From assembly GCA_023424095.1 (NCBI GenBank), contig JAFAEG010000030.1, forward strand, positions 6,674 to 70,673: a stretch of 64,000 bases of DNA. The letters run 5' to 3'. Below are positions 4,232 through 46,619 of the stretch, one piece after another. The notes under the pieces are model-generated. The model was not told where the DNA came from and did not search any database. It worked only from the letters and a program-made list of their open reading frames with translations. Each line of letters begins with the position of its first letter. The first letter of the stretch is position 1. The position numbers were made by a program, and so were the translations under genes. This DNA comes from Pseudomonadota bacterium (GTDB lineage: Bacteria; Pseudomonadota; Alphaproteobacteria; Sphingomonadales; Sphingomonadaceae).

Positions 4232-6028
4232 TCAACCCGGCTCAGCCCCAACCTCAGCGATCCGCGTCCGCCGGATATTCGGCTCCCGCTCAAGCTCGCC
4301 CATTTCCATGATCTGCTGGCGCATCTCCGCCCGCTTCTCGTGGATGCTCGCGATCACCGGCCCCATCGCCATGCCGAGGTCGACCAGCACCGCCTCGCTA
4401 AGCTGTAGCGAGCTTTCCAACGTCTCCGGCACTGCGTCGGTCACGCCGGCCTTGTACAGCTCCGCCGCATGCGCCGCGTCGCGGGCGCGGGCGACGATGC
4501 ACAGGTCGGGGCAATAGGCCCGCACCTTCTTCACCAGCCGCATCGACAGCACCGGATCGTCCATCGTCATGATCAGCGCGCTGGCATGGCCCAGATTGAG
4601 CTTGTCCACGAACTCGCCCCGCGCCGCGTCGCCGAAGGTGACGTTATAGCCGTCCTTGATCGCCTGATTCACGGAGTCGATATCGCTCTCCACCGCGACA
4701 TAGGGCTTGTTGTGGACGACCAGCATGTCGGCCACGAGCCGCCCGACGCGGCCGAAGCCGATGATCACCGCCCGCGGCTCGTCCCGGGACGGCAGCATGC
4801 CGCTCGCGGACCCCTCCATCCTGGTGACGCGCTTGCCCAGGTCGCGCCCGATCCGCGCCAGCAATGGCGTGATCGTCAGCCCCAGAGCGGTGACGATCTG
4901 CCAGAAGGCCGCCGTCTCGCTGGCGATCAGCCCGGCGGTCCCGGCCGCGCCGAGAACGATCAGGGTCGTCTCGGACGGCGAGGCCATCAATATGCTCGCC
5001 TCCGCCGCCACGCCCCGCGTCGCGCCGGAAATCCGCAGCAGGGTCGCCGTGACGATCATCTTCACTACCATCACGCCGAGCAGAGCGAGCAGCAGCAATT
5101 CCCAGTTCGCCGCGATCAGCACGACGTCGAGACTCATCCCGACCGTGATCAGGAACACGCCCAGCCCCAGCCCCCGGAAAGGCGCGGTCATCGCCTCCAC
5201 CTCGCCATGATATTCGGTCTCGGCGATCAATATGCCGGCCAGCAGCGCCCCGGCATATGGCGACAGGCCCGCGGCCGAGGTGATCAAAGCCGCGACGATC
5301 ACCACGATCAGGCTGGCCGACAGGAACAGTTCCGGACTCTTCGCCCGCGCCGCCTGCGCGAACAATTTGGGCAGCAGCAGCCGCCCGGCGATCAGGATGC
5401 CGATCACCGCGAGCGCGCCCTTCCAGACGATGTCCATGATCCCGGTCACGCCGGTATCCGCGCCATAGGGCCCGAGCACGCCCAGCACGAAGATGATCGG
5501 CACCAGCGCGACATCCTCGAACAGCAGCATCGCCAGCGCCGATTTGCCCACCGCGCTCGTCGTCCCGACCAGGGGCAGCACCACCGCGGTCGAAGACATG
5601 GCCAGCGCCAGCCCCAGCGCCAGCGCCCCGGTCCATGGATAGCCGGCAATCATCATCGCGAAGCCGATCAGCGCCGCGCCGATGATCAGTTCCGCCGCGC
5701 CCACCCCGAAGACGAGTTTTCGCATCGTCCATAATCGCGGAAAGCTCAGCTCCAGCCCGATCGAGAAGAGCAGGAGGATGATGCCGAACTCGGCGAACGG
5801 CGCGATCGCTTCGGGGTTCGAGATGGTGACGAAGTTGAGCCAGGGATAAGCGCCGGACAGCGCCCCGAGCCCCGCCGGCCCGACCAGCGCCCCGACCAGG
5901 ATGAAGCCGATCACCGGGCTGACCCGGAAGCGGGCGAAGGCCGGAATGACGATCCCGGCCGCGCCAAGGATCACGAGCGTGTCGCTGAGCCCCGACGCGT
6001 GAAGGCTGTGGGTGATGTCTGCTGCCAT
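4232..6028 (-). CDS. Monovalent cation:proton antiporter-2 (CPA2, KefB/KefC-like) with C-terminal RCK/TrkA-N domain
   Basis: About 600-aa polytopic membrane ORF followed by a Rossmann-type VIIGFGRVGRLVADML motif. I prefer the internal start MAADITHS at 6028. Confidence 0.85.
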   Translation of the reverse strand: MAADITHSLHASGLSDTLVILGAAGIVIPAFARFRVSPVIGFILVGALVGPAGLGALSGAYPWLNFVTISNPEAIAPFAEFGIILLLFSIGLELSFPRLWTMRKLVFGVGAAELIIGAALIGFAMMIAGYPWTGALALGLALAMSSTAVVLPLVGTTSAVGKSALAMLLFEDVALVPIIFVLGVLGPYGADTGVTGIMDIVWKGALAVIGILIAGRLLLPKLFAQAARAKSPELFLSASLIVVIVAALITSAAGLSPYAGALLAGILIAETEYHGEVEAMTAPFRGLGLGVFLITVGMSLDVVLIAANWELLLLALLGVMVVKMIVTATLLRISGATRGVAAEASILMASPSETTLIVLGAAGTAGLIASETAAFWQIVTALGLTITPLLARIGRDLGKRVTRMEGSASGMLPSRDEPRAVIIGFGRVGRLVADMLVVHNKPYVAVESDIDSVNQAIKDGYNVTFGDAARGEFVDKLNLGHASALIMTMDDPVLSMRLVKKVRAYCPDLCIVARARDAAHAAELYKAGVTDAVPETLESSLQLSEAVLVDLGMAMGPVIASIHEKRAEMRQQIMEMGELEREPNIRRTRIAEVGAEPG

Positions 6029-8322: not shown

Positions 8323-8880
8323 ATGCATATGACGTCGCGCAACATCATCCTGTTCGTTCTGGCGGCCTTCGTCGGCATCGCCGCCGGCCTCTATTACCCG
8401 ATCATCGGCCTGATCCTGCTGCCGCCGGTCCTCATCTTCCTCGTCTTCATCCTGCTGAGGAATCGCGGCGCGAAGGAGGCCGATCCGGCGGCGGCGGAAG
8501 CGGCGCGGCAATTCACCGCGCCGCCGGGCATGGCGGCGATCTACGTCATGCGTCACGGCTTCGTCGGCGGCCAGCAGGGCATGAACGTCTCCATTGGCGG
8601 ACTGAACAGCCAGTTTCGCACCGGCCGCTTCGTCCGCGCCGAGGTCGCCCCGGGCACGCACGAAGTCCGTGGCCGTCTGGCCGCCCAGATCGGCGGCACC
8701 GACAAGGTTCACCAGGTGACCCTCGCCCCCGGCGAATGCGTTCTGCTCGACGCCAAGCTCGACATGGGCGCGCTGCAATCGAAGCTCGTCTTCCTCGAAA
8801 CCCGCAATCCCGACGAAGCGCGCGAGAAGCTGGCGAGGCTCAAGCTGGTCGAATGGAAAGCGCCGCCGGGCGCCTCCTGA
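8323..8880 (+). CDS. Hypothetical membrane-anchored protein (DUF2846-like)
   Basis: N-terminal TM helices followed by a beta-rich domain (IYVMRHGF..APGTHEVRG) that resembles DUF2846. The assignment is from memory only. Confidence 0.45.
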   Translation: MHMTSRNIILFVLAAFVGIAAGLYYPIIGLILLPPVLIFLVFILLRNRGAKEADPAAAEAARQFTAPPGMAAIYVMRHGFVGGQQGMNVSIGGLNSQFRTGRFVRAEVAPGTHEVRGRLAAQIGGTDKVHQVTLAPGECVLLDAKLDMGALQSKLVFLETRNPDEAREKLARLKLVEWKAPPGAS

Positions 8881-8905
8881 GTCGGCCCGGCCGCGCGTTC
8901 CCGCC

Positions 8906-10408
8906 TCAGGCGCGCGCTGCCGCCAGCGCCCGCTCGCCCTCGTCATAGCGCTCCAGCGCCAGCGGCGACGGGCGGCTGGCCAGGCTGACGAGGATCGCCG
9001 CAGCGAAGCTCAGGAAGAAGCCCGGCACCATCGCATAGACGACCGCCACGCTGAACGACTGCCCGTCCGGCATCAGCGGCAGGATGCACAGCACCACTGT
9101 CACCGCGCCCACGATCACCCCCGCCAGCGCACCCGCGACGGTGAGCCGCCGCCAGGTCAGGCTCAGGATCACCAACGGCCCGAACGCCGCGCCGAAGCCG
9201 GCCCAGGCATCGGCGACCAGGCCCAGAATGGTGTTCTCGGGCGACCAGGCCAAAGCGATCGCCGCCAGCGATACGGCCAGCACCGACGCCCGGCCCACCG
9301 TCACCAATTCCTTGTCAGCCACCTCTCGGCGCAGGAAGACGCGGTAGAAATCCTCCACCAGCGAGCTGGATGACACCAGCAATTGCGAGCTGATTGTGCT
9401 CATGATCGCCGCCAGCAATGCCGCGTAGAGGAAGCCCGTGATCATCGGGTGGAACAGGATCTGGCCGAGCAGGATGAAAATCGTCTCCGCATCGTTCACG
9501 ACAATGCCGTTCGCATTGGCATAGGCCAGGCCGACAAAGCCGGTCGCCAGCGCGCCGATCAGCGACACCGCCATCCAGGTCATGCCGATATTGCGCATCG
9601 TCGGGATATCCTTGACCGAGCGCACCGCCATAAACCGCGTGATGATGTGCGGCTGGCCGAAATATCCCAGGCCCCAGGCGAGCGAGGAAATGATGCCAAG
9701 CGCCGTGGTGCCGGCAAACAGGTCCATCGCGGTCGGATTGATCGCGACTACCTGCGCGACGACATCGCCGTCGATCGCAAAAAAGGCGACGACCGGCACC
9801 ATCACCAGCGCCACGAACATGATGATGCCCTGGACGAAGTCGGTGAGGCTCACCGCAAGGAAGCCTCCGATCAAGGTGTAGATCAGCACCGCGCCGGCGG
9901 TGATCCAAAGCCCGAGCGTGTAATCCGCTCCGAACGCGGTTTCGAACAATTTGCCGCCCGCGACCATGCCGGCGGAGGTGTAGAGCGTGAAGAAGATGAC
10001 AATGACCAGCGCGCAGACGAGCCGCAGCACATGGCTGCGATCGTCCAGTCGCTGGGCGAAATAAGCCGGGATGGTGATTGCGTCGCCCGTTTCTTCGGTG
10101 TGGACGCGCAGCCGCGGCGCGACGATCAGATAATTGGCGAGCGCGCCCGCGAACAGGCCGATCGCGATCCAGCTGGCGGACAGGCCAGACAGGAAAGCGG
10201 CGCCGGGCAGGCCCATCATCAGCCAGCCGCTCATGTCGGCCGCGCCGGCGGAAAGGGCAGCCACTGAGGGGCTCAGCCGCCGCCCGCCGAGCAGATAGCC
10301 GCTGACGTCGGCCGTCGACTTGCGCCAGGCGTAGACGCCGATCCACAGCATGCCCGCGAAATAGATGGACAGGGAGATGACCGCCCCGGTTTCGACGCCC
10401 GCATCCAT
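8906..10408 (-). CDS. putP: Sodium:solute symporter family protein (PutP-like sodium/proline symporter)
   Basis: 500-aa polytopic ORF whose N-terminus (SIYFAGMLWIGVYAWRKSTADVSGYLLGGRRLSP) is typical of SSS/PutP transporters. Confidence 0.8.
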   Translation of the reverse strand: MDAGVETGAVISLSIYFAGMLWIGVYAWRKSTADVSGYLLGGRRLSPSVAALSAGAADMSGWLMMGLPGAAFLSGLSASWIAIGLFAGALANYLIVAPRLRVHTEETGDAITIPAYFAQRLDDRSHVLRLVCALVIVIFFTLYTSAGMVAGGKLFETAFGADYTLGLWITAGAVLIYTLIGGFLAVSLTDFVQGIIMFVALVMVPVVAFFAIDGDVVAQVVAINPTAMDLFAGTTALGIISSLAWGLGYFGQPHIITRFMAVRSVKDIPTMRNIGMTWMAVSLIGALATGFVGLAYANANGIVVNDAETIFILLGQILFHPMITGFLYAALLAAIMSTISSQLLVSSSSLVEDFYRVFLRREVADKELVTVGRASVLAVSLAAIALAWSPENTILGLVADAWAGFGAAFGPLVILSLTWRRLTVAGALAGVIVGAVTVVLCILPLMPDGQSFSVAVVYAMVPGFFLSFAAAILVSLASRPSPLALERYDEGERALAAARA

Positions 10409-35024: not shown

Positions 35025-35170
35025 CACGCCCCGGCGAGCCTCCGATTAACCCGATGTAGAAGCTTCGGCACGAATGAGACGGGTCGGCTCCAGATCCTCC
35101 AGAATTGCGACGCATGACCGTGTCGACATTCGGCAGGGCAGCCGGGAAATGTCGGAGCAGCGCGGGGCAG

Positions 35171-36268
35171 ATGGGCATGAATGAACTCGAGGCGTCCAGC
35201 GATTCGTCCGCCTATGAAGTGCCTGCTGCCGTGGATGAATTCGGCAGGCTGACGGATCATTGCGTCCGGCAAGCGCTGGAGATGATAGACACGCACGGCC
35301 TGGTCATCCTGACCGGCCTGCTGTCGGACGAGGAAGCGGATTTCGGCCTGGAGCTGATGCGCCAAACCATCGACGATCCGGATCGCAGCCGCTGCTCCTT
35401 CGCCAGCGAGACCGACAATCGCTACGTGCGCCGCGATTTCTGCTCCCTTCCCTCGACGCCGCCTGTGAAGAGCTTTGCCGCCACCTTGTGCCAGCGTCTG
35501 GAGGGCGTCCTGTCGGAATATTGCGGCCGGTCGCGTCCGCTTCTCGAGATCATCACCCTGACCAGCTATCTCGGCTCATCGCATCAATATATTCACCGCG
35601 ATCCGGCCGGCGTGATCAGCCTTCTGGCCGCCGTGGAAGACGTCTCGGAGCAGCAGGGGGGAACGGCTTTCATCCCCGGGACGCACATGTACGGCGGCGC
35701 CGAATACAAACATGGCGGCGCGGCCCATGCGTTGGTGGAGCTGTTTCGCACCAAGTGTAATTACAGGATCTTTCGCCATAATCTGAAGAAATTATGGGCG
35801 ATGCGCGGGGACAAGCAGACCCCGCTTGCGCCTGGCGAGTTCAGGGACCGGGTGTTTTCAACCAAGTGGGATCAGCATCAGCCAAATCTGCTGCGCTTCG
35901 TGATGGGGAAGAATTCCCAATTCAGCATTCGCATGCTCGGCCCGCGGCGCTTGTGGAAACTCTATCGCCAGCGCAAGCGCCTCGGCAGCCTGTTCCAACT
36001 GGTCCAGACGGCACCTCGGAAGGGGAGCGTCATCCTCTATCGGAGCGATTTGCTCCATGGCGGCCCCGACAATAGGTCGCCCCATCCCCGGCGCTTCTTC
36101 GGCATGAGCATCGCGCGGGACATCATCGAACCCAAATATTGGCATGATGGCTATTCGCCGCACCCCACGCTGATTTCTCAGCCGATGTGTTTCGGCGACC
36201 TTCTGGACGCTCCCCCGCTTCCGGTGCCGTCCCGAGCGGCTCGCCGCCACCTGCGAGTCTCCGGATAA
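35171..36268 (+). CDS. Putative Fe(II)/2-oxoglutarate dioxygenase (PhyH-like)
   Basis: Contains YIHRDPAG (HxD), GGTAFIPGTH and a distal ILYRSDLLHGG. GC is lower than in the flanks. The start is uncertain (35105, 35171 or 35177). Confidence 0.5.
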   Translation: MGMNELEASSDSSAYEVPAAVDEFGRLTDHCVRQALEMIDTHGLVILTGLLSDEEADFGLELMRQTIDDPDRSRCSFASETDNRYVRRDFCSLPSTPPVKSFAATLCQRLEGVLSEYCGRSRPLLEIITLTSYLGSSHQYIHRDPAGVISLLAAVEDVSEQQGGTAFIPGTHMYGGAEYKHGGAAHALVELFRTKCNYRIFRHNLKKLWAMRGDKQTPLAPGEFRDRVFSTKWDQHQPNLLRFVMGKNSQFSIRMLGPRRLWKLYRQRKRLGSLFQLVQTAPRKGSVILYRSDLLHGGPDNRSPHPRRFFGMSIARDIIEPKYWHDGYSPHPTLISQPMCFGDLLDAPPLPVPSRAARRHLRVSG

Positions 36269-37851: not shown

Positions 37852-39678
37852 ATGGCGTTCAACCGGCGTGAGATTATCGGCGGCGCGGGTGCGCTGGGGC
37901 TGGCGAGCGGCCTCCCCGCCCCGCTCGCCGCGCAATCGGGCCGCGACGCCCGCGCAAACATCCTGCTCGGCGAACTGGCCGAGGAGCATCTGCGCATGTT
38001 CCCGGAAACCGCCACCACGCTGGGCATCGACAAGCGGAGCCGCGCCGATCTGCGCGCCAGGATCGGCGACAAGTCGCGCGCCGGCCAGCAGGCCGAGCTG
38101 GCCTGGCTGCAATCGGCGGTCCGGCGGCTGAGTGCCCTTCCCGCCTCCGGCCTCTCGCCGCAGACCCAGTCGAACGTCGACACCGTCCGCGCGTCCTACG
38201 AGACCGGCATCCTTGGCTACGCCTTTCCCTATGGCGACGTCGGCGTCTCGAGCTGGCGCAACGGCCCGTATCCGGTCGCCCAGAATATGGGCTCGTACAT
38301 CGATCTGCCGAAATTCCTCGACGCCGATCACACGGTCGAAAATGCCGAAGATGCCGAGACTTATCTCGCCCGCCTGTCACAACATGCCAAGCAATTGGAC
38401 GATGAGACGGATCGCCTGCGGGCCCAGCGCGAACAGGGCGTGATCGCGCCCGATGCGGTGCTCGACAAGACGCTCGCCGCGCTCCGCCGCACCCGCGAAG
38501 GCGATCCCGGCGAATGGATGATCGTCACCTCGCTCGCCAACCGCACCGCCTCGATTCCCGGCAATTGGCGTGCCCGGGCCGAGCAGATCGCCCGTCGCGA
38601 CGTCAATCCGGCGCTGGGCCGGCAGATCGAGGAAATCGAGCAACATCGACGCCGCGCCACGGCCGACTTCGGCGCCTGGAAGCTGCCGCGCGGCGACGAA
38701 TATTACGCCTGGACCCTCGCCGCCGCGACCACGACCCGCCGAACGCCCGATCAGGTCCACGAACAGGGTCTCGAGGAATTGCGCCATTATACCGGCGAGA
38801 TGGACCGGCTGATGCGCAGCCTGGGTTTCACCTCGGGGACCGTCAGCGACCGCTACCGCGCGATGCTCCGCGACCGGCGCTACGCCTTCGCCGAAGGGGA
38901 TGCCGGCCGGGCCGAGATCATCGCCTTCATCCAGGCCCAGCTCGCAGAGCTGCGCCCGCGCCTCTCACAAGCCTTTGGCACGCTCGTCGCCGGCAATGTC
39001 GAAGTGCGCCGCATCGCCCCGGCCGAGGAAATGGGCGCGCCCGGCGCTTATGGCGGGGCCGGCTCGATCGACGGCTCCGTCCCCGGCCGCTTCTGGATCA
39101 ACCTTCGAAGCACCGACATGCACAGCCGCATCGACCTTCCGAGCCTGACCTATCATGAGGCGATCCCGGGTCACGTCTGGGCCGGCGAATATGCCAACCG
39201 GCTGCCGCTCGCCCGCGCCGTCACGGTGTACGGCTTCAGCGCATTTTCGGAAGGCTGGGCGCTCTATGGCGAGCAATTGGCCGGCGAGCTCGGCGTTTAT
39301 GAGGACAATCCCGAAGGCCAGCTCGGCTATTATCAGTCCATGGCCTTTCGCGCCGCGCGGCTGGTGGTCGACACCGGCATCCACTCCAAGCGCTGGACCC
39401 GCGACCATGCCCTGCGCTGGTTCGCCGAGGCGACCGGCGGCACGGTGGACAGCGTTGCCAACGAGATCGACCGCTATGCCGTCTGGCCCGGCCAAGCCTG
39501 CGGCTACAAGGTCGGCCACACCGAGATCAACCGCCAGCGCGAACGTGCGCGCAGCGCGCTCGGCCGACGCTTCGACCTCAAGGCGTTCAACGATCTGGTG
39601 GTCGGTGGCGGCTCGCGGCCGCTCACCATCGTGGAGCGCGAAGTCGACCGGATGATCGCCGCGCGCCGGCGGGGCTGA
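37852..39678 (+). CDS. DUF885 family protein with Tat-type signal
   Basis: MAFNRREIIGGAGALGLA twin-Arg leader and a YHEAIPGHVW motif typical of DUF885. Confidence 0.8.
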   Translation: MAFNRREIIGGAGALGLASGLPAPLAAQSGRDARANILLGELAEEHLRMFPETATTLGIDKRSRADLRARIGDKSRAGQQAELAWLQSAVRRLSALPASGLSPQTQSNVDTVRASYETGILGYAFPYGDVGVSSWRNGPYPVAQNMGSYIDLPKFLDADHTVENAEDAETYLARLSQHAKQLDDETDRLRAQREQGVIAPDAVLDKTLAALRRTREGDPGEWMIVTSLANRTASIPGNWRARAEQIARRDVNPALGRQIEEIEQHRRRATADFGAWKLPRGDEYYAWTLAAATTTRRTPDQVHEQGLEELRHYTGEMDRLMRSLGFTSGTVSDRYRAMLRDRRYAFAEGDAGRAEIIAFIQAQLAELRPRLSQAFGTLVAGNVEVRRIAPAEEMGAPGAYGGAGSIDGSVPGRFWINLRSTDMHSRIDLPSLTYHEAIPGHVWAGEYANRLPLARAVTVYGFSAFSEGWALYGEQLAGELGVYEDNPEGQLGYYQSMAFRAARLVVDTGIHSKRWTRDHALRWFAEATGGTVDSVANEIDRYAVWPGQACGYKVGHTEINRQRERARSALGRRFDLKAFNDLVVGGGSRPLTIVEREVDRMIAARRRG

Positions 39679-40634: not shown

Positions 40635-41723
40635 TCAGCGAAAGATGCGCCGCACCTTTGCCGGGGTCCTGAGCCACGCGCCGATGCTTGCAGGATCATG
40701 GCGCAGGTCCCGCGCCGCATCGCCGATCCGCCAGGTCGCCTTGCGGATTCTCCCTTCGAACCTGCCCCTGGCGGCAGCGCTCACGAAGCGTCGCCGCGCC
40801 GCCTCCGGATCCGCGCCGGAGCCGGCTGGAATCGGCTCGCCCAGCAAGACCGCGGCGAGGCCCAGATTGTCGCGCAGCACCGCGACGAAACCGAAGCGGG
40901 TGAAGTGCCGGCTCTGCCAGTCCCAGTCGATTTGCGTGCCATGTCGTCGCCGCAGGACGGCGAGGTCGAGCAATTGCCGCAGGCTCGGCCGTGCCGCGCG
41001 ATAGCGCCGGTCGACGATCTGGGCATGGACGATGTTGTGAGCGACGCGCCAATCCACCCCGGGGATCAGGGCGACACCCTCCCCCACCGGCACCTCCGTC
41101 GCTTGCGCCAGCGCATTTTCCCGATCGACCATGCGCACAAAGTTGGGACGGGCCGCCGCATGATGGATTTCGACCGAGACCGCCGTCTCCTTATCGCGCT
41201 GCATGGGCAGATGATGGTGGCCCGGAGAGGCTTGTGTGTGCGCTTCGAAACCGGCGGCCGCCAACGCTTCGAACGCGCCCGGCGCTGAGTCGGGCGGCAC
41301 CATCAGATCGCAATCGAGCATCACCCGCAGGCCCGGCGCCGGATAATCCCCGGCCGCGAGCATCGCCGCCCCCTTCAGCAGCAACGGCTGGATGCCGATC
41401 GCATTGAGGGCTCGGGTCGCGCGTTCCAGCGTCGACAGCACGCGCCGGTTCCGCTCGCCATTCATTTGGAGCAGGGCCGCAAACACCTGGGCGACCGGCG
41501 GCGGAATGCCGTCCGCGCGATGGATGCACCAGCCCAGCGCCGGTGCGACCATCTGCTCGCTCGCCAGCGCGACGATCCGCTCCCAATCGGGCGGCGTTTC
41601 CGCAAAGCCCCGGCGCTCTCCCCCCGTGCAGCCGCTCAGCGATCCGCCGATCAAGATCAGGTCGCGCCAGTCCGCCAGAGCGTCGGCGCGCCGGGCCGCG
41701 AGATTGCGACCGGTGGCGGTCAT
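40635..41723 (-). CDS. Nucleotidyltransferase family protein (PF14907-like)
   Basis: 362-aa ORF with LLLKGAAML...VMLDCDLMV...H-rich segments resembling the uncharacterised nucleotidyltransferase family. Its ATG overlaps the stop of the upstream kinase (ATGA). Confidence 0.7.
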   Translation of the reverse strand: MTATGRNLAARRADALADWRDLILIGGSLSGCTGGERRGFAETPPDWERIVALASEQMVAPALGWCIHRADGIPPPVAQVFAALLQMNGERNRRVLSTLERATRALNAIGIQPLLLKGAAMLAAGDYPAPGLRVMLDCDLMVPPDSAPGAFEALAAAGFEAHTQASPGHHHLPMQRDKETAVSVEIHHAAARPNFVRMVDRENALAQATEVPVGEGVALIPGVDWRVAHNIVHAQIVDRRYRAARPSLRQLLDLAVLRRRHGTQIDWDWQSRHFTRFGFVAVLRDNLGLAAVLLGEPIPAGSGADPEAARRRFVSAAARGRFEGRIRKATWRIGDAARDLRHDPASIGAWLRTPAKVRRIFR

Positions 41724-42820
41724 CTTGCTGCCAGGGTCAGCGCGTTGACGCGCTCGACCGCCGCCGCGACGTCGCCATACGGCAAGGTGAAGGCCGGCGT
41801 TCGCTCGATCCAGCCGATCAGGGCCTCGATCCGCGCGTCCGTGACGGGAGCCTCGACGCTGAGGCCCGCCTCGATCAGGCGCTGCAACGCGTTCAACGCC
41901 GATACCGGCTCGGACTCCGGCGTGTCCCCGGGGCGGAAATGCGGAAAGATCAGCGCGCCGACCGGCTGAGGCTCCGGCCAGACCGGCGCGCCGAGTTCGA
42001 CCATCCGCGCCCTTGTATTCTTCACCTTGTAGGTCGTCGCCGTCCGAAGCGCCGGAAAGCGCTCGGCAAAGAGCGGCCAGCTTGCCTCCTTCACGCTCAG
42101 CGGCAGCGGCCAGGGCAATGCCTTGCCGGCCATCGTCAAAGGCACGGCGTCGTCTGAGCGATAGTCATAGCCGGCCCTGACCAGCGCCCCAATCAGGGTG
42201 CTCTTGCCGCTGCCCGACACGCCGGCGATGCACAGGCCGCCCTGCGGACCGGCCACCGCGCCGGCGTGGAGCATGGCCACCACCTCATGTTCCGGCCATG
42301 CCAGGCCGATCATCGCGCGGATCGCCTGCTGCAGGCCGTAGCCGCGGCCGCGCACCACGCCGTCGACGGTCGTGACGGTCAGTTCGTCCGCTTCAACGCG
42401 GACCTCGATGCGCGTTTCGCTCGCGCGGTCGCTTGCGGGAAAGCGCTCGATCCACCGCGCTAGGACGCCGGCATGACGGGGATGTTCGACCGCGATCTCG
42501 AACACGGCGCCGCGCAATCGGCAGCGCCATTCACCCGCCCAGGCGGCCGGGCCTGCAGGCAACAAGGTTTCGGGATCCGATTGGCCGCGGCCCGGATCAG
42601 CATCCGCGGCGATCGTCCATGCTGCGATCAGCGCCGAAACATCCTGTTCGACGCGGGCCACCGTCTCAGGCTGCCCCCTGCTGATCGCCGCGACGATCTC
42701 CGAGGCTGGGATCCCGGCATCGAAGGCGCGCCAGATGTTCGCGGCGTGGGCATCGAGCACGAGCAGGCGTTCCCGCTCCGCCGGCAAGACCAGCCCATCG
42801 CCGCACGGGAACGCGCGCAT
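41720..42820 (-). CDS. PqqD-like (RRE) domain fused to HprK-related kinase
   Basis: The first ~75 aa (LLVLDAHAANIWRAFDAGIPASEIVAAISRG..VEQDVSALIAAW) are PqqD-like. The C-terminal part has CIAGVSGSGKSTLIGALVRAGYDYRSDDAVPL, which parallels GPSGAGKSDLAIRLIDRGAMLVSDDYTQL of the genuine HprK at 50678. Confidence 0.75.
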   Translation of the reverse strand: MRAFPCGDGLVLPAERERLLVLDAHAANIWRAFDAGIPASEIVAAISRGQPETVARVEQDVSALIAAWTIAADADPGRGQSDPETLLPAGPAAWAGEWRCRLRGAVFEIAVEHPRHAGVLARWIERFPASDRASETRIEVRVEADELTVTTVDGVVRGRGYGLQQAIRAMIGLAWPEHEVVAMLHAGAVAGPQGGLCIAGVSGSGKSTLIGALVRAGYDYRSDDAVPLTMAGKALPWPLPLSVKEASWPLFAERFPALRTATTYKVKNTRARMVELGAPVWPEPQPVGALIFPHFRPGDTPESEPVSALNALQRLIEAGLSVEAPVTDARIEALIGWIERTPAFTLPYGDVAAAVERVNALTLAAR

Positions 42821-42842: not shown

Positions 42843-43025
42843 TCAGACGACGCTTCCGCTGGAGACGAACTGGGCGGTCGCCTTGCTGCTCATCAGCACG
42901 GTCATGGACGGCGCGACATAGGCGCCCATCACGCCAAGCCGCTCGAGCACATCCTGCCGGGCCGCTTCCGCTTCTTCCTGCTGCGCGATGCTGAGATCGC
43001 CGTCGGAGCGCTTGTCGATAGTCAT
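42843..43025 (-). CDS. Candidate RiPP precursor peptide (60 aa)
   Basis: AAGAGGGGGG lies 8 nt before the ATG, third codon positions are G/C-rich like host genes, and it is the first gene of the kinase operon. An acidic, helix-prone N-terminal half is followed by a Ser/Thr-rich C-terminal half (..GVMGAYVAPSMTVLMSSKATAQFVSSGSVV). Confidence 0.55.
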   Translation of the reverse strand: MTIDKRSDGDLSIAQQEEAEAARQDVLERLGVMGAYVAPSMTVLMSSKATAQFVSSGSVV

Positions 43026-43131
43026 GGGAATTGTCCCCCCTCTTTACCATGTCCAGATTCCTCCAGAATGGCGGATTTTGCAACAATTTTTCATAAGGAT
43101 GTGTATGATTTCGGCTCCGTAAGGGGAACCA
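43026..43131. promoter_or_regulatory. AT-rich divergent promoter region of the peptide/kinase and radical-SAM operons
   Basis: 106-bp spacer; my hand count gives 13 G/C in the 40 nt at 43071-43110. It contains TTGCAA and TATGAT hexamers, but their spacing (20 nt) does not allow a confident promoter call. Confidence 0.35.
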
Positions 43132-44310
43132 ATGCGCGACCGGGTCAAACTCGTCTTCGTCCTCAGCCACGCCTGTCCGCTGAAGTGCAATTTCTGCTGC
43201 AGCACACGCGAGGTCGTCGGCCGCGGACGCATCCAGCGCGACACCATCCGCGACTCGATGCTGAACTTCGCTTGCGAGCCATCCGTTTCCGCTTTCGGCT
43301 TCACCGGCGGCGATCCCTTTCTCTATCTCGAAGACATCAAGGCCGCGGTGCGCGAGGCGCGCGATTATGGCGTCACCCAGCCCATCCAGATGACGACCTC
43401 CGCTTATTGGGCGGAGAGCCGCGAGCAGGTGACGGCGCTCCTGGCCGAACTGCAGGCACTTGGCCTCGACCAGCTCATGCTCAGCTATGATCATGAACAT
43501 GCCCGCTGGGTGACGCCGGACCAGATCCGCATGGTCTGCGAAGCTGCGGCCAAGCTTGGCATTCGCATCGTCATTTCCGCTACCTTCTGGAACGAAGGCG
43601 AGCAGCTCGCGGACCTCCTGCCGGACGTTGCGGCGGCGCCGGGCATCACCACGATCAACCACGTCGTCACGCCAATGGGGCGGGCGAAGACCTCGTCGGC
43701 ATGGCCCCGGCGCTACAATGTGCCGGTTCAGGCCAAAATGTCCTGCTTCATGCCGGGGGAATATCTGTTCTCCGTCTATCCCGACGGGGAAGTCTATCCC
43801 TGCTGTGGCGGCGGCTTCCAGATCGAGGCCGGGCTGTCCTGCGGCAACATCAACCGCGACCCGCCCGCGCGCATCCTCTACGCCGGGCTCGCCAATTTCC
43901 ACGTCCGCCTCGCCAAGGAATTTGGCTGGGGCGTGCTCTACGCCCTGATCGAGCGCGAAGCGCCGGAGCTGGCGGCCCAATTGCCGTCGATCGAGAATGC
44001 GGACTCGGTGTGCGAAATCTGCCGCGACCTGCACCTAAAGCTCGCCGAGCAACTCGCGCCTTACCAGCAGGTGATCGAACGCGAATATGCCCGCGCCCGC
44101 GCGACCCGCGAGTGGCAACGCGCGGGCGGTCCCGAGCGGCGGGCGATCCCGGGCGGTGAAGTCACGCTGGACGAACTGCTGGCGCGGATGGATTGTGATC
44201 GGGCGCTGCGGCTCGATTATCTCGCCGGCATCTTCCAACTCGGCGATGATTTCCCGGCCGAGCCGCCCCGCGAAGAGCCGAGCAACATCCGCACCGCCAG
44301 CTTCGCATGA
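43132..44310 (+). CDS. Radical SAM enzyme with C-terminal Cys-rich (SPASM/twitch-like) region
   Basis: CPLKCNFC (CxxxCxxC) at residues 15-22. Later come YPDGEVYPCCGGG, LSCGNI and CEIC cysteines. AAGGGG lies 6 nt before the ATG. Confidence 0.8.
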   Translation: MRDRVKLVFVLSHACPLKCNFCCSTREVVGRGRIQRDTIRDSMLNFACEPSVSAFGFTGGDPFLYLEDIKAAVREARDYGVTQPIQMTTSAYWAESREQVTALLAELQALGLDQLMLSYDHEHARWVTPDQIRMVCEAAAKLGIRIVISATFWNEGEQLADLLPDVAAAPGITTINHVVTPMGRAKTSSAWPRRYNVPVQAKMSCFMPGEYLFSVYPDGEVYPCCGGGFQIEAGLSCGNINRDPPARILYAGLANFHVRLAKEFGWGVLYALIEREAPELAAQLPSIENADSVCEICRDLHLKLAEQLAPYQQVIEREYARARATREWQRAGGPERRAIPGGEVTLDELLARMDCDRALRLDYLAGIFQLGDDFPAEPPREEPSNIRTASFA

Positions 44311-45785
44311 CGCAGCCCTCGACCGGCCCGGATGCCGCCGAGCTGGATCGAAAGGTGGCGGAAGCCCGCCAACTGCTCGACCAAGGCGACACCCATGCGG
44401 CGATCACCCTGCTGGGCGAATCCCTGCGCACCGACCATCGCCATGTCCCGACCCTGATCGCCTTCGCCCGCGCCCAATTCCGCTGGGGCAATCCGGCACA
44501 AGCGGAAGCCGCCTGCCACGCCGCTTTGGCCGAAGCGCCCGACAATGCGGAGGCGATTGCTCAACTCGGCGCCATCCTGATCCACGCCAACAAGGCCGAC
44601 GCCGCCCTCGAGCTCGCCGAGCGATCCCTGCGTGAACAGCCAGGTCACCGGCCCATCCGGCTCGTCCGCGCAAACGCCCTCAAAGTGCTTGGCCAGATCG
44701 ATCAAGCGCGAGAGGCTCTGCGCGACCTGATCGAAAGTGACCCCGACGACCCCTCGCCTCTCGCCAGCTATGCCGAGATCGTCACAGCGGACGACCGCGC
44801 CGGGTTGATCGTCCTTCTGCGTGCGGCCGTTGCCGAAGCAAATCCCGACCAATCGACCCGCCCGAGCCTGCATTATGCGCTCGGGCGGCTGCTCGACCAA
44901 AGCGGCGAGCATGACGAAGCCTTTGCCGAATTCGCCGCCGGCGCGCGACTGATGAAGGCGCGCATCGCCTATGACGAGCCATTCACGCTCAGCCTGTTCG
45001 ATCGCACGCGCGCCACATTCGCCACGCCAGCTGCACCCGTCCCCGGGGCGCCACATGCAGGGCCCACCCCGATCTTCATCGTCGGCATGCCGCGCTCCGG
45101 CAGTACCCTGATCGAGCAGATCATCTCCCGCCACCCCGACGCCTTTTGCGCGGGCGAGATCATGGCCTTCGCCGATGCTCTGGCCGCAGAGCGTCGCGCC
45201 GATCCTTCGCTCCCCCTCTTTCCGGAACTGGCGACCGGACTGGACGGAGCCGCATGGCAACGGGTCGGCGCGGCCTACCGCGGCGCAATGCCCAACGAAG
45301 CGTCAGGCAAGCGCATCCACGTCAACAAATTGCTCGGCAATCACCTCTTCATCGGCGCGATCCTGCAGGCGCTGCCGGATGCGCGCTTCATCATCGCCAG
45401 GCGCGATCCGCGCGATACCTGCCTGTCGATCTTCTCGCTGAATTTCGAACAGCACATTCCGTTCGGCTACGATCTGGGCGAACTGGGCCGCTATCACCGC
45501 GGCTGCGACGCCATCCTGGCGCACTGGCTGTCGATCCTGCCGGAGGCTCGCATCCTGGAGGTCGCCTATGAGAATCTGGTCACCGATTTCGAGGCCGAAG
45601 CGCGCCGGCTGATCGCTTTTCTCGACCTGGCCTGGACGCCCGAATGTCTCGACTTCCACAAGTCGGATCGTCCAGTTCTGACCGCGAGTTTGAACCAGGT
45701 GCGCCAGCCACTCTACGCCAGCTCGATCGGCCGCTGGCGCGCTTATGAGCGCCATCTGGAGCCGCTGTTCGAGGCGCTGGGCTAG
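44307..45785 (+). CDS. TPR-repeat sulfotransferase (TPST/Sulfotransfer_3-like)
   Basis: The N-terminal ~230 aa are TPR-like. The C-terminal part has the 5'-PSB motif IVGMPRSGSTLIEQ and RRDPRDTCLS (3'-PB-like). Its ATG overlaps the radical-SAM stop (ATGA). Confidence 0.8.
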   Translation: MTQPSTGPDAAELDRKVAEARQLLDQGDTHAAITLLGESLRTDHRHVPTLIAFARAQFRWGNPAQAEAACHAALAEAPDNAEAIAQLGAILIHANKADAALELAERSLREQPGHRPIRLVRANALKVLGQIDQAREALRDLIESDPDDPSPLASYAEIVTADDRAGLIVLLRAAVAEANPDQSTRPSLHYALGRLLDQSGEHDEAFAEFAAGARLMKARIAYDEPFTLSLFDRTRATFATPAAPVPGAPHAGPTPIFIVGMPRSGSTLIEQIISRHPDAFCAGEIMAFADALAAERRADPSLPLFPELATGLDGAAWQRVGAAYRGAMPNEASGKRIHVNKLLGNHLFIGAILQALPDARFIIARRDPRDTCLSIFSLNFEQHIPFGYDLGELGRYHRGCDAILAHWLSILPEARILEVAYENLVTDFEAEARRLIAFLDLAWTPECLDFHKSDRPVLTASLNQVRQPLYASSIGRWRAYERHLEPLFEALG

Positions 45786-45789
45786 GACC

Positions 45790-46101
45790 TCACTCGGGAC
45801 GCCGCACGACGACCAGCTTCTGATCCCGCAATTGCGCGACGAAACTGGACACGTCCGCCTGCACCGTCGCGACCTCGACACCGTAAAGGGCGGCGATCTC
45901 GACCGCGAGCGAGGCGATGGTGCGCTCTTCGGCGATCCGCTCCCAGATCTGCACGCCGATTGCGTTCAGTTCGACATAATCGCCTTGCTCGACGCCGATC
46001 AGCACCCAGCGCCCGTCGATCTCGACCGCATTTTCTTCGGGCCGGCGGGCAACGAGATCGTCAGGGTGAAGCGGAGCGGCTGGCATGATGCGGTGGGTCA
46101 T
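45790..46101 (-). CDS. PqqD family peptide chaperone (stand-alone RRE)
   Basis: VEIDGRWVLIGVEQGDYVELNAIGVQIWERIAEERTIASLAVEIAALYGVEVATVQADVSSFVAQL is typical of PqqD. The start is at 46101 or 46086. Confidence 0.7.
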   Translation of the reverse strand: MTHRIMPAAPLHPDDLVARRPEENAVEIDGRWVLIGVEQGDYVELNAIGVQIWERIAEERTIASLAVEIAALYGVEVATVQADVSSFVAQLRDQKLVVVRRPE

Positions 46102-46127: not shown

Positions 46128-46565
46128 CTACGTCAGGTCCGGCTCGACCCAGCCCAACCGGGCCTCGCGCGAGAACAGCTTTTCCTTCGAATAGAACCGG
46201 AGCGGCCAATCGCGCCGCCCCTCCTCCGCCTGCAGCAAGGCGTTGACCCGTTCGCAAAGCCCCTTCCCCGTGCTTCCGGCGAGCGCTGCGCGGGCGGCGC
46301 GGATCGACACCTGGGTGATGGTTTCGTGATAGCCCTCGCTGTCGCTGTTCACGCCGCCGACGCTCTCATTGTAGCGGCGAATGAGGTCCGGCAGGTCGCG
46401 TTCCGGCACGATGTCGGGGCGCTCCAGGATGAGCCAGGCGCAGGCGACGAGATGGGCTTCGTGCGTCCATTCGGCGCGCGGCAGGCTGCGCGCGAGCATG
46501 CCCTCGCCGACGTGGCGCACGGCCGCGTCGTCGGCGAACAGGCGGACGGGATGATCGGTCATCAT
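46128..46565 (-). CDS. Hypothetical protein
   Basis: 145-aa ORF (MMTDHPVRLFADD..GYHETITQV..) following AAGGA, 26 nt upstream of and co-oriented with the PqqD gene. I recognise no family. Confidence 0.5.
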   Translation of the reverse strand: MMTDHPVRLFADDAAVRHVGEGMLARSLPRAEWTHEAHLVACAWLILERPDIVPERDLPDLIRRYNESVGGVNSDSEGYHETITQVSIRAARAALAGSTGKGLCERVNALLQAEEGRRDWPLRFYSKEKLFSREARLGWVEPDLT

Positions 46566-46581
46566 CGGATATCCTTCGGGC

Positions 46582-46619
46582 AAAAGAAAAGGGGCGCGCC
46601 GGTCGCCCGGCACACCCCT
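46582..46619 (-). terminator. Intrinsic terminator after pckA
   Basis: On the minus strand the sequence reads GGGGTGTGCCGG-GCGA-CCGGCGCGCCCC followed by TTTTCTTTT, about 20 nt after the pckA stop. Confidence 0.55.

Follow-up and report, generated by a model that had tools for sequence, protein, structure and literature searches.

Does a short open reading frame (ORF) at the head of a kinase operon encode a peptide and, if so, what becomes of that peptide? The question is raised by a 64,000-nucleotide stretch of contig JAFAEG010000030.1, from a member of the Sphingomonadaceae (Alphaproteobacteria), which we refer to in its entirety as the window. A sequence-only reading of the window had proposed that a 60-residue ORF on its minus strand encodes a precursor peptide with an acidic leader and a Ser/Thr-rich, Cys-free core. 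Here, we find that the ORF is a genuine gene under purifying selection in its own frame. We argue that its product is probably the precursor substrate of a cassette resembling those that make peptides synthesised on the ribosome and modified after translation (RiPPs), in which the peptide is accompanied by an HprK-like kinase guided by a fused PqqD-type RiPP recognition element (RRE) and by an NTP_transf_5 enzyme.

A small gene at the head of the kinase operon

The peptide gene and the two genes that follow it lie as follows.

42843..43025, minus strand: gene for the 60-residue precursor-type peptide, stop codon included (ATG at 43025, stop codon at 42845..42843)
43035..43044, minus strand: Shine-Dalgarno-like run AAGAGGGGGG, read from the sequence
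41720..42820, minus strand: fusion of a PqqD/RRE domain to an HprK-like P-loop kinase, 366 residues, with the motif GVSGSGKST (PF05402 at residues 11-68)
40635..41723, minus strand: NTP_transf_5 nucleotidyltransferase-family protein, 362 residues (PF14907, E=8.7e-38), its start overlapping the kinase stop codon

Translation of the minus strand gives exactly the peptide that had been predicted, MTIDKRSDGDLSIAQQEEAEAARQDVLERLGVMGAYVAPSMTVLMSSKATAQFVSSGSVV, and the features on which the prediction leaned are all present. The Shine-Dalgarno-like run (43044..43035) ends 9 nt before the ATG, and a purine- and G-rich run is also kept at this position in the orthologue of locus L007. Third codon positions are as rich in G and C as those of the kinase gene (0.84 versus 0.83), and the peptide gene heads a co-directional run of three, with 22 nt between its stop codon and the kinase ATG.

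An open frame of this size is weak evidence by itself, because 131 ORFs of at least 40 residues overlap the surrounding 16 kb; two long shadow ORFs cross the peptide gene. Comparison with relatives is more informative. Homologues of the peptide from metagenomes are 87-88% identical to it (E = 1e-23 to 1e-25). Between the window gene and its L007 orthologue there are 23 nucleotide differences, 14 of them at third codon positions, and the ratio of nonsynonymous to synonymous differences per site (pN/pS) is 0.28 in the peptide frame, compared with 0.54 for the in-phase frame of the antisense strand and 1.67-2.03 for the remaining four. These close homologues, the frame-specific selection and the conserved position beside the kinase gene together lead us to judge the ORF a gene.

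That position was established from the kinase outwards. Close relatives of the kinase are few (10 matches), and on each of their readable contigs a small gene has been called directly upstream. The encoded peptides are homologous to that of the window, with lengths of 55 (L001), 47 (L002), 59 (L003/L004 and L005/L006) and 60 residues (L007), and on two further contigs small genes, for products of 66 and 78 residues, are annotated at the same place. The arrangement recurs around the divergent family members of L042, L043/L044, L045 and L049, and a metagenome scan with the peptide alignment confirmed only three more loci (L046-L048). Among GTDB genomes, a scan with the single kinase sequence gave no match, and an alignment scan gave only distant kinases (25-32% identity), later used as the HPr-rel-A comparators described below. 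Of the independent contexts (the window, L001, L002, L003/4, L005/6, L007, L042, L043/44, L045, L046, L047, L048 and L049), 13 out of 13 have a family peptide immediately upstream of a PqqD-HprK-like or ScmC-like kinase, so that a homologous small ORF is present in every homologous cluster inspected. The lack of such an ORF, which the sequence-only reading had named as a refutation, was thus not observed. NTP_transf_5 stands alongside the kinase wherever the contig is long enough. Since four loci (L003, L043, L045 and L049) are bare three-gene cassettes, we take peptide, kinase and NTP_transf_5 to be the core of the system. In L045, the single kinase is preceded by tandem precursor copies (8803-8979 and 9001-9162), both of which end in Ala-Ser directly after the conserved block described below (...KAMAAS and ...KAAVAS).

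A conserved block and a variable tail

A profile of these peptides was searched against 1.84 billion representative proteins and recovered 1,088 at E<=1e-3 (77 of which reach E<=1e-10), nearly all of them 48-100 residues long; an earlier profile built from the locus peptides had returned 34 small proteins from a clustered database. No Pfam or NCBIfam model covers members of this family, and the window peptide matches no curated model. The sole hints from such models are weak matches to TIGR04117 ('radical SAM target'), by family member P0069 (E=0.0025) and by the peptide of locus L009 (E=0.18).

When the 144 family members that carry the Tyr motif were aligned on this residue, information content approached its maximum between R(-13) and A(+16), counted from the Tyr, and fell to background directly beyond, with the block consensus RREALKKLGKYAAYTAPAMLxLLxSxKAxA. 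The region N-terminal to the block has a median length of 24 residues, near-background information content and a net negative charge in 92% of the family. The tails beyond the block range from 1 to 60 residues (median 9), and may be Gly-rich (...GFSG), Cys-rich, Pro-rich, Lys/Arg-rich or very short (VS, AS, SS). A conserved leader followed by a core that is hypervariable across homologues is the usual RiPP pattern, and the window peptide can be divided on the same lines.

42960..43025, minus strand: residues 1-22, acidic N-terminal region of variable sequence and length (from alignments)
42873..42959, minus strand: residues R23-A51, conserved block RQDVLERLGVMGAYVAPSMTVLMSSKATA, proposed leader and RRE-recognition sequence (from information content)
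42846..42872, minus strand: residues Q52-V60, variable tail QFVSSGSVV, proposed core peptide (family tails being hypervariable)

The picture of an acidic leader joined to a Ser/Thr-rich core thus survives in part. The acidity is a property of the family as a whole, but the boundary had been drawn too far to the left, the conserved stretch R23-A51 spanning much of the supposed core. The composition reported for the C-terminal half is accurate (residues 31-60 contain eight Ser/Thr, one Tyr, one Lys, one Phe and no Cys), but Y36, S40, T42, S46, S47, K48 and T50 all fall inside the conserved block. Because this block precedes the hypervariable tails, the boundary moves well to the right, and the variable core consists of about nine residues, Q52-V60, including three Ser and starting after the K-A-x-A motif. 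The suggestion that the Tyr might be sulfated fares worse. It is kept in at least 144 of the 170 members of up to 130 residues, including those of three-gene cassettes without a sulfotransferase, and for this reason Tyr36 is assigned to the recognition block and is unlikely to be sulfated.

The tails of the nine loci with a radical-SAM gene follow a single pattern, x-[F/T]-[V/I]-[S/T]-S-G-[S/T/A]-[T/V]-x, and the conserved block is also present in cassettes that have neither radical-SAM nor sulfotransferase genes. The shared motif of this subfamily indicates that the accessory enzymes track the tail, not the block.

Some longer family members depart from this layout. In P0068 (223 residues), the leader block is joined to a Hint/intein-like domain, and in P0178 and P0183 (about 245 residues) a Gly-rich tail runs into a segment that looks PqqD-like by eye; in each case, this may be a natural fusion or read-through in gene calling.

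The cassette and its proposed chemistry

In the window, the three-gene core is accompanied by a divergent pair of accessory genes and a further PqqD-family gene.

43132..44310, plus strand: radical SAM/SPASM enzyme, 392 residues, divergent from the peptide gene (PF04055, PF13353 and PF13186)
44307..45785, plus strand: TPR and sulfotransferase protein, 492 residues (PF13469, E=9e-41, plus TPR families), its start overlapping the radical-SAM stop
45790..46101, minus strand: stand-alone PqqD-family protein, about 103 residues from a putative internal ATG at 46101 (PF05402, E=7e-17)
43026..43131, no strand assigned: intergenic region that separates the peptide gene from the divergent radical-SAM gene, with a block conserved in comparison with L007

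The kinase combines a PqqD/RRE domain (approximately residues 1-70) with an HprK-related P-loop kinase that makes up the remainder of the protein. In an AlphaFold2 model (pLDDT 82.6), the N-terminal domain consists of three strands followed by three helices, the beta3-alpha3 layout of an RRE, and Foldseek matched the model to PEP carboxykinase and to HprK/P of L. casei; a sequence search of the PDB with the kinase returned P-loop noise only, and the fold assignment comes from the structure search. That a small ORF adjoins a kinase with a peptide-binding domain of this kind supports the proposal that it encodes a precursor. The PqqD domains of the family's kinases match the models for lasso PqqD chaperones best, at scores below cutoff. 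The fused domain of the window kinase does not match TIGR04353, and the kinase has no match at E<=0.01 to the ScmC models (TIGR04249 / PF27840). ScmC matches occur only in distant relatives, in P0012 and faintly in the L049 kinase.

The radical-SAM protein scores 87.3 bits against TIGR04078, the YydG family (cutoff 300; model positions 3-292 of 309), with the next NCBIfam families at 27 bits or less, and its only sequence relatives in the PDB are the YydG structures 8AI1-8AI6 (E=8e-18 over 290 residues). Its closest characterised relative is thus the epimerase YydG/EpeE, which is in keeping with epimerisation, one of the reactions that had been put forward for it. A YPCC stretch in the window protein aligns with the YPCC of YydG. 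This stretch may contain the catalytic hydrogen donor, Cys223, if an offset of 25 residues from a tag is assumed. The radical-SAM gene is found in nine loci, in all five of which with a sufficiently long contig a sulfotransferase gene is also present; besides the window, L001, L002, L042 and L047 carry one. The stand-alone PqqD protein, whose best NCBIfam match is lasso_PqqD_Bac (54 bits, cutoff 80), has a counterpart in L001 (2792-3124).

Individual loci add details of their own. L042 (7600-10400) has a window-like architecture in which the radical-SAM and kinase genes are split over several frames, either because the cluster is decaying or through assembly errors. In L001 (1002-2795 and 8406-15212), the cassette sits amid genes for glycosyltransferases, a DegT-type aminotransferase, AsnB and methyltransferases, a setting that hints at a link to sugar chemistry. 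L002 encodes a glutaminyl cyclase (4748-5515, PF05096) with a lipoprotein signal (LFAGC), 11 nt after NTP_transf_5; it was found in none of the other loci examined. The L002 peptide would expose an N-terminal Gln after cleavage at its AxA site.

From homology and synteny, on which all of the chemistry proposed here is based, a pathway can be outlined. The RRE fused to the kinase would bind R23-A51, centred on Y36-x-x-P39-x-M41, and the kinase domain would phosphorylate a Ser/Thr hydroxyl of the tail (S55, S56 or S58). The NTP_transf_5 enzyme may then extend the phosphate with a glycosyl or nucleotidyl group, as the nucleotidyltransferase does in pseudomycoidin. In the radical-SAM subfamily, a YydG/EpeE-like enzyme, possibly aided by the stand-alone PqqD protein, would also act on the tail. 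It would most likely epimerise the Val/Ile conserved at core position 3, a reaction that we favour because EpeE is the only relative in the PDB, because EpeE epimerises Val and Ile (PMC8326336) and because a Val/Ile is conserved in the core. The TPR-sulfotransferase could sulfate a hydroxyl, either on a tail Ser/Thr or on an added sugar. Because the cassette has no conserved protease or transporter, the leader would probably be removed, and the peptide exported, by general machinery that works on the signal-peptide-like block and cuts near A51|Q52; this is the weakest step of the scheme.

Several observations weigh against a precursor pathway of this form. The kinase and the radical-SAM enzyme both score far below the curated cutoffs, so that their activities may differ from those of the families named. 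The synteny count takes in 13 contexts from a family of roughly 1,000 clusters. There is no protease or transporter among the genes of the window cluster, nor is a protease or exporter conserved in the homologous loci. Finally, many members have tails of only 1-3 residues (VS, AS, SS), for which a classical leader/core product would amount to almost nothing.

The scheme borrows most from lasso peptides. HprK homologues phosphorylate Ser of linear lasso precursors, the pseudomycoidin nucleotidyltransferase adds hexoses to the phosphate, and some clusters carry sulfotransferase genes (PMC8498205). In Bradymonas, BsfK phosphorylates faster with the RRE protein BsfB1 (PMC10368454). The paeninodin (PadeK), pseudomycoidin (PsmK/PsmN) and BsfA/BsfK/BsfB1 systems resemble the proposed window pathway in an HprK-like kinase acting on a precursor Ser, a PqqD-family RRE (B1) that aids it, a nucleotidyltransferase that extends the phosphate and, in some clusters, a sulfotransferase; their leaders place YxxPxL about 16-17 residues before the core, which is comparable to the position of the window Tyr. 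The window differs from them in having no lasso cyclase, B2 leader protease or ABC exporter, in a core without an acidic residue, in the fusion of its RRE to the kinase, and in a leader with a signal-like RR..AxA frame and a long acidic N-terminus. The system looks like a lasso tailoring module that has been freed from the lasso machinery, its RRE now fused to the kinase.

The uncharacterised HPr-rel-A system (TIGR04352, together with PqqD_rel_X, TIGR04353) has the same gene order: small protein, PqqD, HprK-like kinase, NTP_transf_5. In the window, too, PqqD and NTP_transf_5 accompany the kinase, the former as an N-terminal fusion. The window kinase, however, reaches only 61.9 bits against TIGR04352 (cutoff 200) and matches only the C-terminal two thirds of the model, whereas the HPr-rel-A control in L025 scores 240 bits against TIGR04352 and 64 bits against TIGR04353. 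HPr-rel-A loci also lack radical-SAM and sulfotransferase genes, and their substrate would be a protein of about 130 residues with a twin-arginine (Tat) signal, not a peptide of 50-70 residues. This protein precedes the Sphingomonadales HPr-rel-A loci L016, L018, L022, L023, L025 (5118-5606), L027, L028, L029 and L035. It has an acidic N-terminus, a twin-arginine RR...ALA|Q signal and a C-terminus ending ...SGFTCYASLQMPR, has no NCBIfam match, is conserved among these loci, and is likely to be the substrate of the HPr-rel-A system.

Two other systems can be compared. With the epipeptide system (YydF/EpeX and YydG/EpeE), the window shares the 290-residue radical-SAM alignment, including YPCC, and a Val/Ile in the core, but not the precursor, which is unrelated to YydF, nor the EpeP protease and EpeAB transporter. 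The match to TIGR04078 stays well short of cutoff (87 versus 300 bits), and EpeE works independently of a leader, whereas the window has two PqqD/RRE modules. The SynChlorMet cassette presumably comprises an HprK-like ScmC, a PqqD-like ScmD, radical SAM/SPASM enzymes and small target peptides, as the names of the models indicate. Family resemblances to this cassette and to Syntroph_Cxxx (TIGR04117) consist of the two weak TIGR04117 matches mentioned above and of the ScmC matches of some family kinases, but the window kinase falls below TIGR04249 at E<=0.01 and the window peptide matches no curated model.

Within the divergent intergenic region, a block of about 50 nt inside 43045..43110 (minus-strand sequence CCATACACATCCTTATGAAAAnTTnTTGCAAAATCCGCCATTCTGGAG) has hardly changed between the window and L007, against a divergence of about 29% at synonymous sites in the adjacent ORF; the two divergent operons probably share it as a regulatory site. 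No sigma-70 consensus promoter was found in this region, nor a convincing terminator around the peptide gene. A by-eye likeness to a sigma-54 site was rejected, the GG-GC spacing being 2 nt too short, and no Rfam family is present in the region, the sole match being to Hammerhead_II at chance level (E=0.29). Further out, the flanks look unrelated, with DUF2171 and other genes past NTP_transf_5 and with pckA and a two-component system past the stand-alone PqqD gene. A 161-residue ORF (46128..46613, minus strand) between the latter and pckA has no Pfam match. Base composition is uniform across the region, with no sign of a foreign island.

Recognition sequence, export signal or functional body

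What, then, is the conserved block for? It resembles two known elements at once. Lasso leaders present YxxPxL to a PqqD-type RRE at -17..-12 and have Thr at -2 (PMC10368454). The block contains a similar YxxPx[M/L] motif, in the window Y36-V-A-P39-S-M41, and a boundary at A51|Q52 puts the window Tyr at -16, one residue off the canonical lasso register, and T50 at -2. The same block is laid out like a twin-arginine signal, with R-R-x-A-L-K-K-L-G, an uncharged stretch and then K-A-x-A.

This second likeness raises the possibility that the block is mainly an export signal, for the twin-arginine or the Sec route, and not only an enzyme-recognition leader. Modification would take place in the cytoplasm, general machinery would export the peptide, and signal peptidase I would cut it after K-A-x-A to leave a very short modified product, here Q/pGlu-FVSSGSVV. 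Such a role partly overlaps the explanation we favour, from which it differs in the purpose of the block, and we regard it as possible if doubtful. The layout speaks for it, as 137 of the 144 Tyr-motif members have RR and 141 have an AxA-like site, and in the window L29-S47 is uncharged and followed by K-A-T-A. The window peptide, however, has R23-Q24 in place of Arg-Arg, and RQ or RL is also seen in several relatives of the radical-SAM subfamily, including near-identical relatives of RR-bearing peptides. The long, acidic n-region is unusual for a signal peptide, and the conservation of YTAPAM goes far beyond what a signal peptide needs. Curated Tat models (TIGR01409 and PF10518) match no family member at E<=10, although the controls are themselves marginal: TorA reaches 17.0 bits against a cutoff of 16.7, and a DUF885 protein of the window 14.4 against 22.7.

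Small ORFs in two distant cassettes, at 4840-5226 (minus strand) of L009, a metagenome-assembled genome (MAG) of the Hyphomicrobiales, and at 5164-5394 (plus strand) of L010, a Campylobacterota MAG, encode peptides with canonical RRRFLAK or RRRFMEK, one with a His/Gly-rich and the other with an Asp/Thr-rich tail; these loci extend the peptide-kinase-NTP_transf_5 theme across phyla. The clear RR...ALA signal of the roughly 130-residue protein ahead of Sphingomonadales HPr-rel-A systems and the want of a dedicated protease or transporter conserved in the cassette also favour export, as does the glutaminyl cyclase of L002, which suits an exported peptide with an N-terminal Gln but is confined to that one locus. 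Tails of 1-3 residues, on the other hand, would leave almost no product.

There are precedents for RiPP precursors with general secretory signals, namely bufferins (PMC11626156) and lipoprotein-pathway RiPPs (PMC13056109), and Sec signals have been noted in the literature for DUF2282 precursors. The bufferins and the lipoprotein-pathway macrocycles likewise combine a general export signal with the absence of a dedicated protease and transporter. Their signals are of the Sec or lipoprotein kind, however, and their enzymes are MNIO or others, whereas the window block looks like a twin-arginine signal, is highly conserved and follows an acidic extension, and its export is putative. The window DUF885 protein mentioned above (37852..39678) has a plausible twin-arginine signal, MAFNRREIIGGAGALGLASGLPAPLAAQ, with a weak PF10518 match, which indicates that the host probably uses the Tat pathway; neither its gene nor that of a PhyH-like dioxygenase nearby (35105..36268) is conserved with the cassette.

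It is tempting to combine the two likenesses in a single block that both docks the RRE-kinase and acts as a twin-arginine-type export signal cut by signal peptidase I at K-A-x-A, a proposal that we make tentatively and consider rather unlikely. Were it true, it would define a widespread RiPP class that does without a dedicated protease or transporter and releases phospho-glycosylated or nucleotidylated peptides of 1-10 residues. Products of the radical-SAM subfamily would also contain a D-amino acid and sulfate, and that of the window would be a derivative of (pyro)Glu-FVSSGSVV.

Less probable again is that the block itself is the modified part or the functional body of the peptide, either as a cofactor precursor like PqqA or MftA, with its conserved residues as the modified ones, or as a small, membrane-associated peptide or scaffold that is left uncleaved and bears phosphate and a sugar or nucleotide on its C-terminal Ser. 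We think this improbable, although it accounts for the tails of 1-3 residues, which the classical leader/core picture handles poorly. Many members stop 1-3 residues past the block, often with a final Ser (S in 22 of 144), and a C-terminal Ser is what lasso-type HprK kinases target; the block includes a moderately hydrophobic stretch of 17-20 residues, and some cassettes (L001, L003 and L008) lie amid glycosyltransferase and sugar-modification genes. Yet the tails are hypervariable and often long, with types rich in Cys, Gly, Pro or Lys, as is usual where diverse cores share one leader, and the accessory radical-SAM and sulfotransferase genes track the tail motif and not the block.

That the ORF is instead a chance frame in GC-rich DNA, with the kinase cassette acting on something else, is highly improbable: open frames of such size are very common in the window, but frame-specific selection, a position kept in 13 contexts and profile E-values down to 1e-30 exclude it. 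The likelihood of a lasso precursor is close to nil, since, despite the YxxPx[M/L] motif with Thr at -2, the lasso-like PqqD proteins and a trio of kinase, nucleotidyltransferase and sulfotransferase familiar from lasso clusters of Firmicutes, neither the window cluster nor any homologous locus has a lasso cyclase or a B2 protease, the only nearby Asn-synthase-like gene (in L001) encodes a protein starting MCGI, a true glutamine amidotransferase, and the tail QFVSSGSVV offers no Asp/Glu at positions 7-9 for a macrolactam.

A precursor role for the peptide in an RRE-guided cassette, which we hold to be the probable one, would find little counterpart in the searchable literature, outside of which lie the subscription journals. 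There, accounts of HprK-type kinases in peptide maturation deal with lasso peptides only, and all papers relevant to peptide modification that contain both 'HPr kinase' and 'RiPP' concern lasso peptides. Nothing relevant was found for HPr-rel-A, SynChlorMet, ScmC or PF14907/NTP_transf_5 in such a role, or for twin-arginine-like RiPP leaders, and kinase fusions are not mentioned in the RRE-Finder paper or in the 2025 paper on RRE definition. The enzyme families and the RiPP logic are already known; to these the finding adds a widespread precursor family outside curation, an architecture that is not that of a lasso system and a signal-like leader.

If this reading is correct, the window peptide represents a large family of peptide substrates, with about 1,000 clusters at 50% identity, that falls outside the Pfam and NCBIfam models. 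It would also supply a substrate for the PqqD/HprK-like/NTP_transf_5 cassette that NCBI has named HPr-rel-A and that is uncharacterised. The conserved block would provide a simple handle for genome mining, and the three-gene core is small enough for reconstitution in E. coli. The analysis further suggests that a signal-peptide-like leader could stand in for the usual dedicated protease and exporter. Finally, a Ser kinase, a phosphate-extending nucleotidyltransferase and a sulfotransferase known only from lasso peptides would also form a stand-alone pathway.

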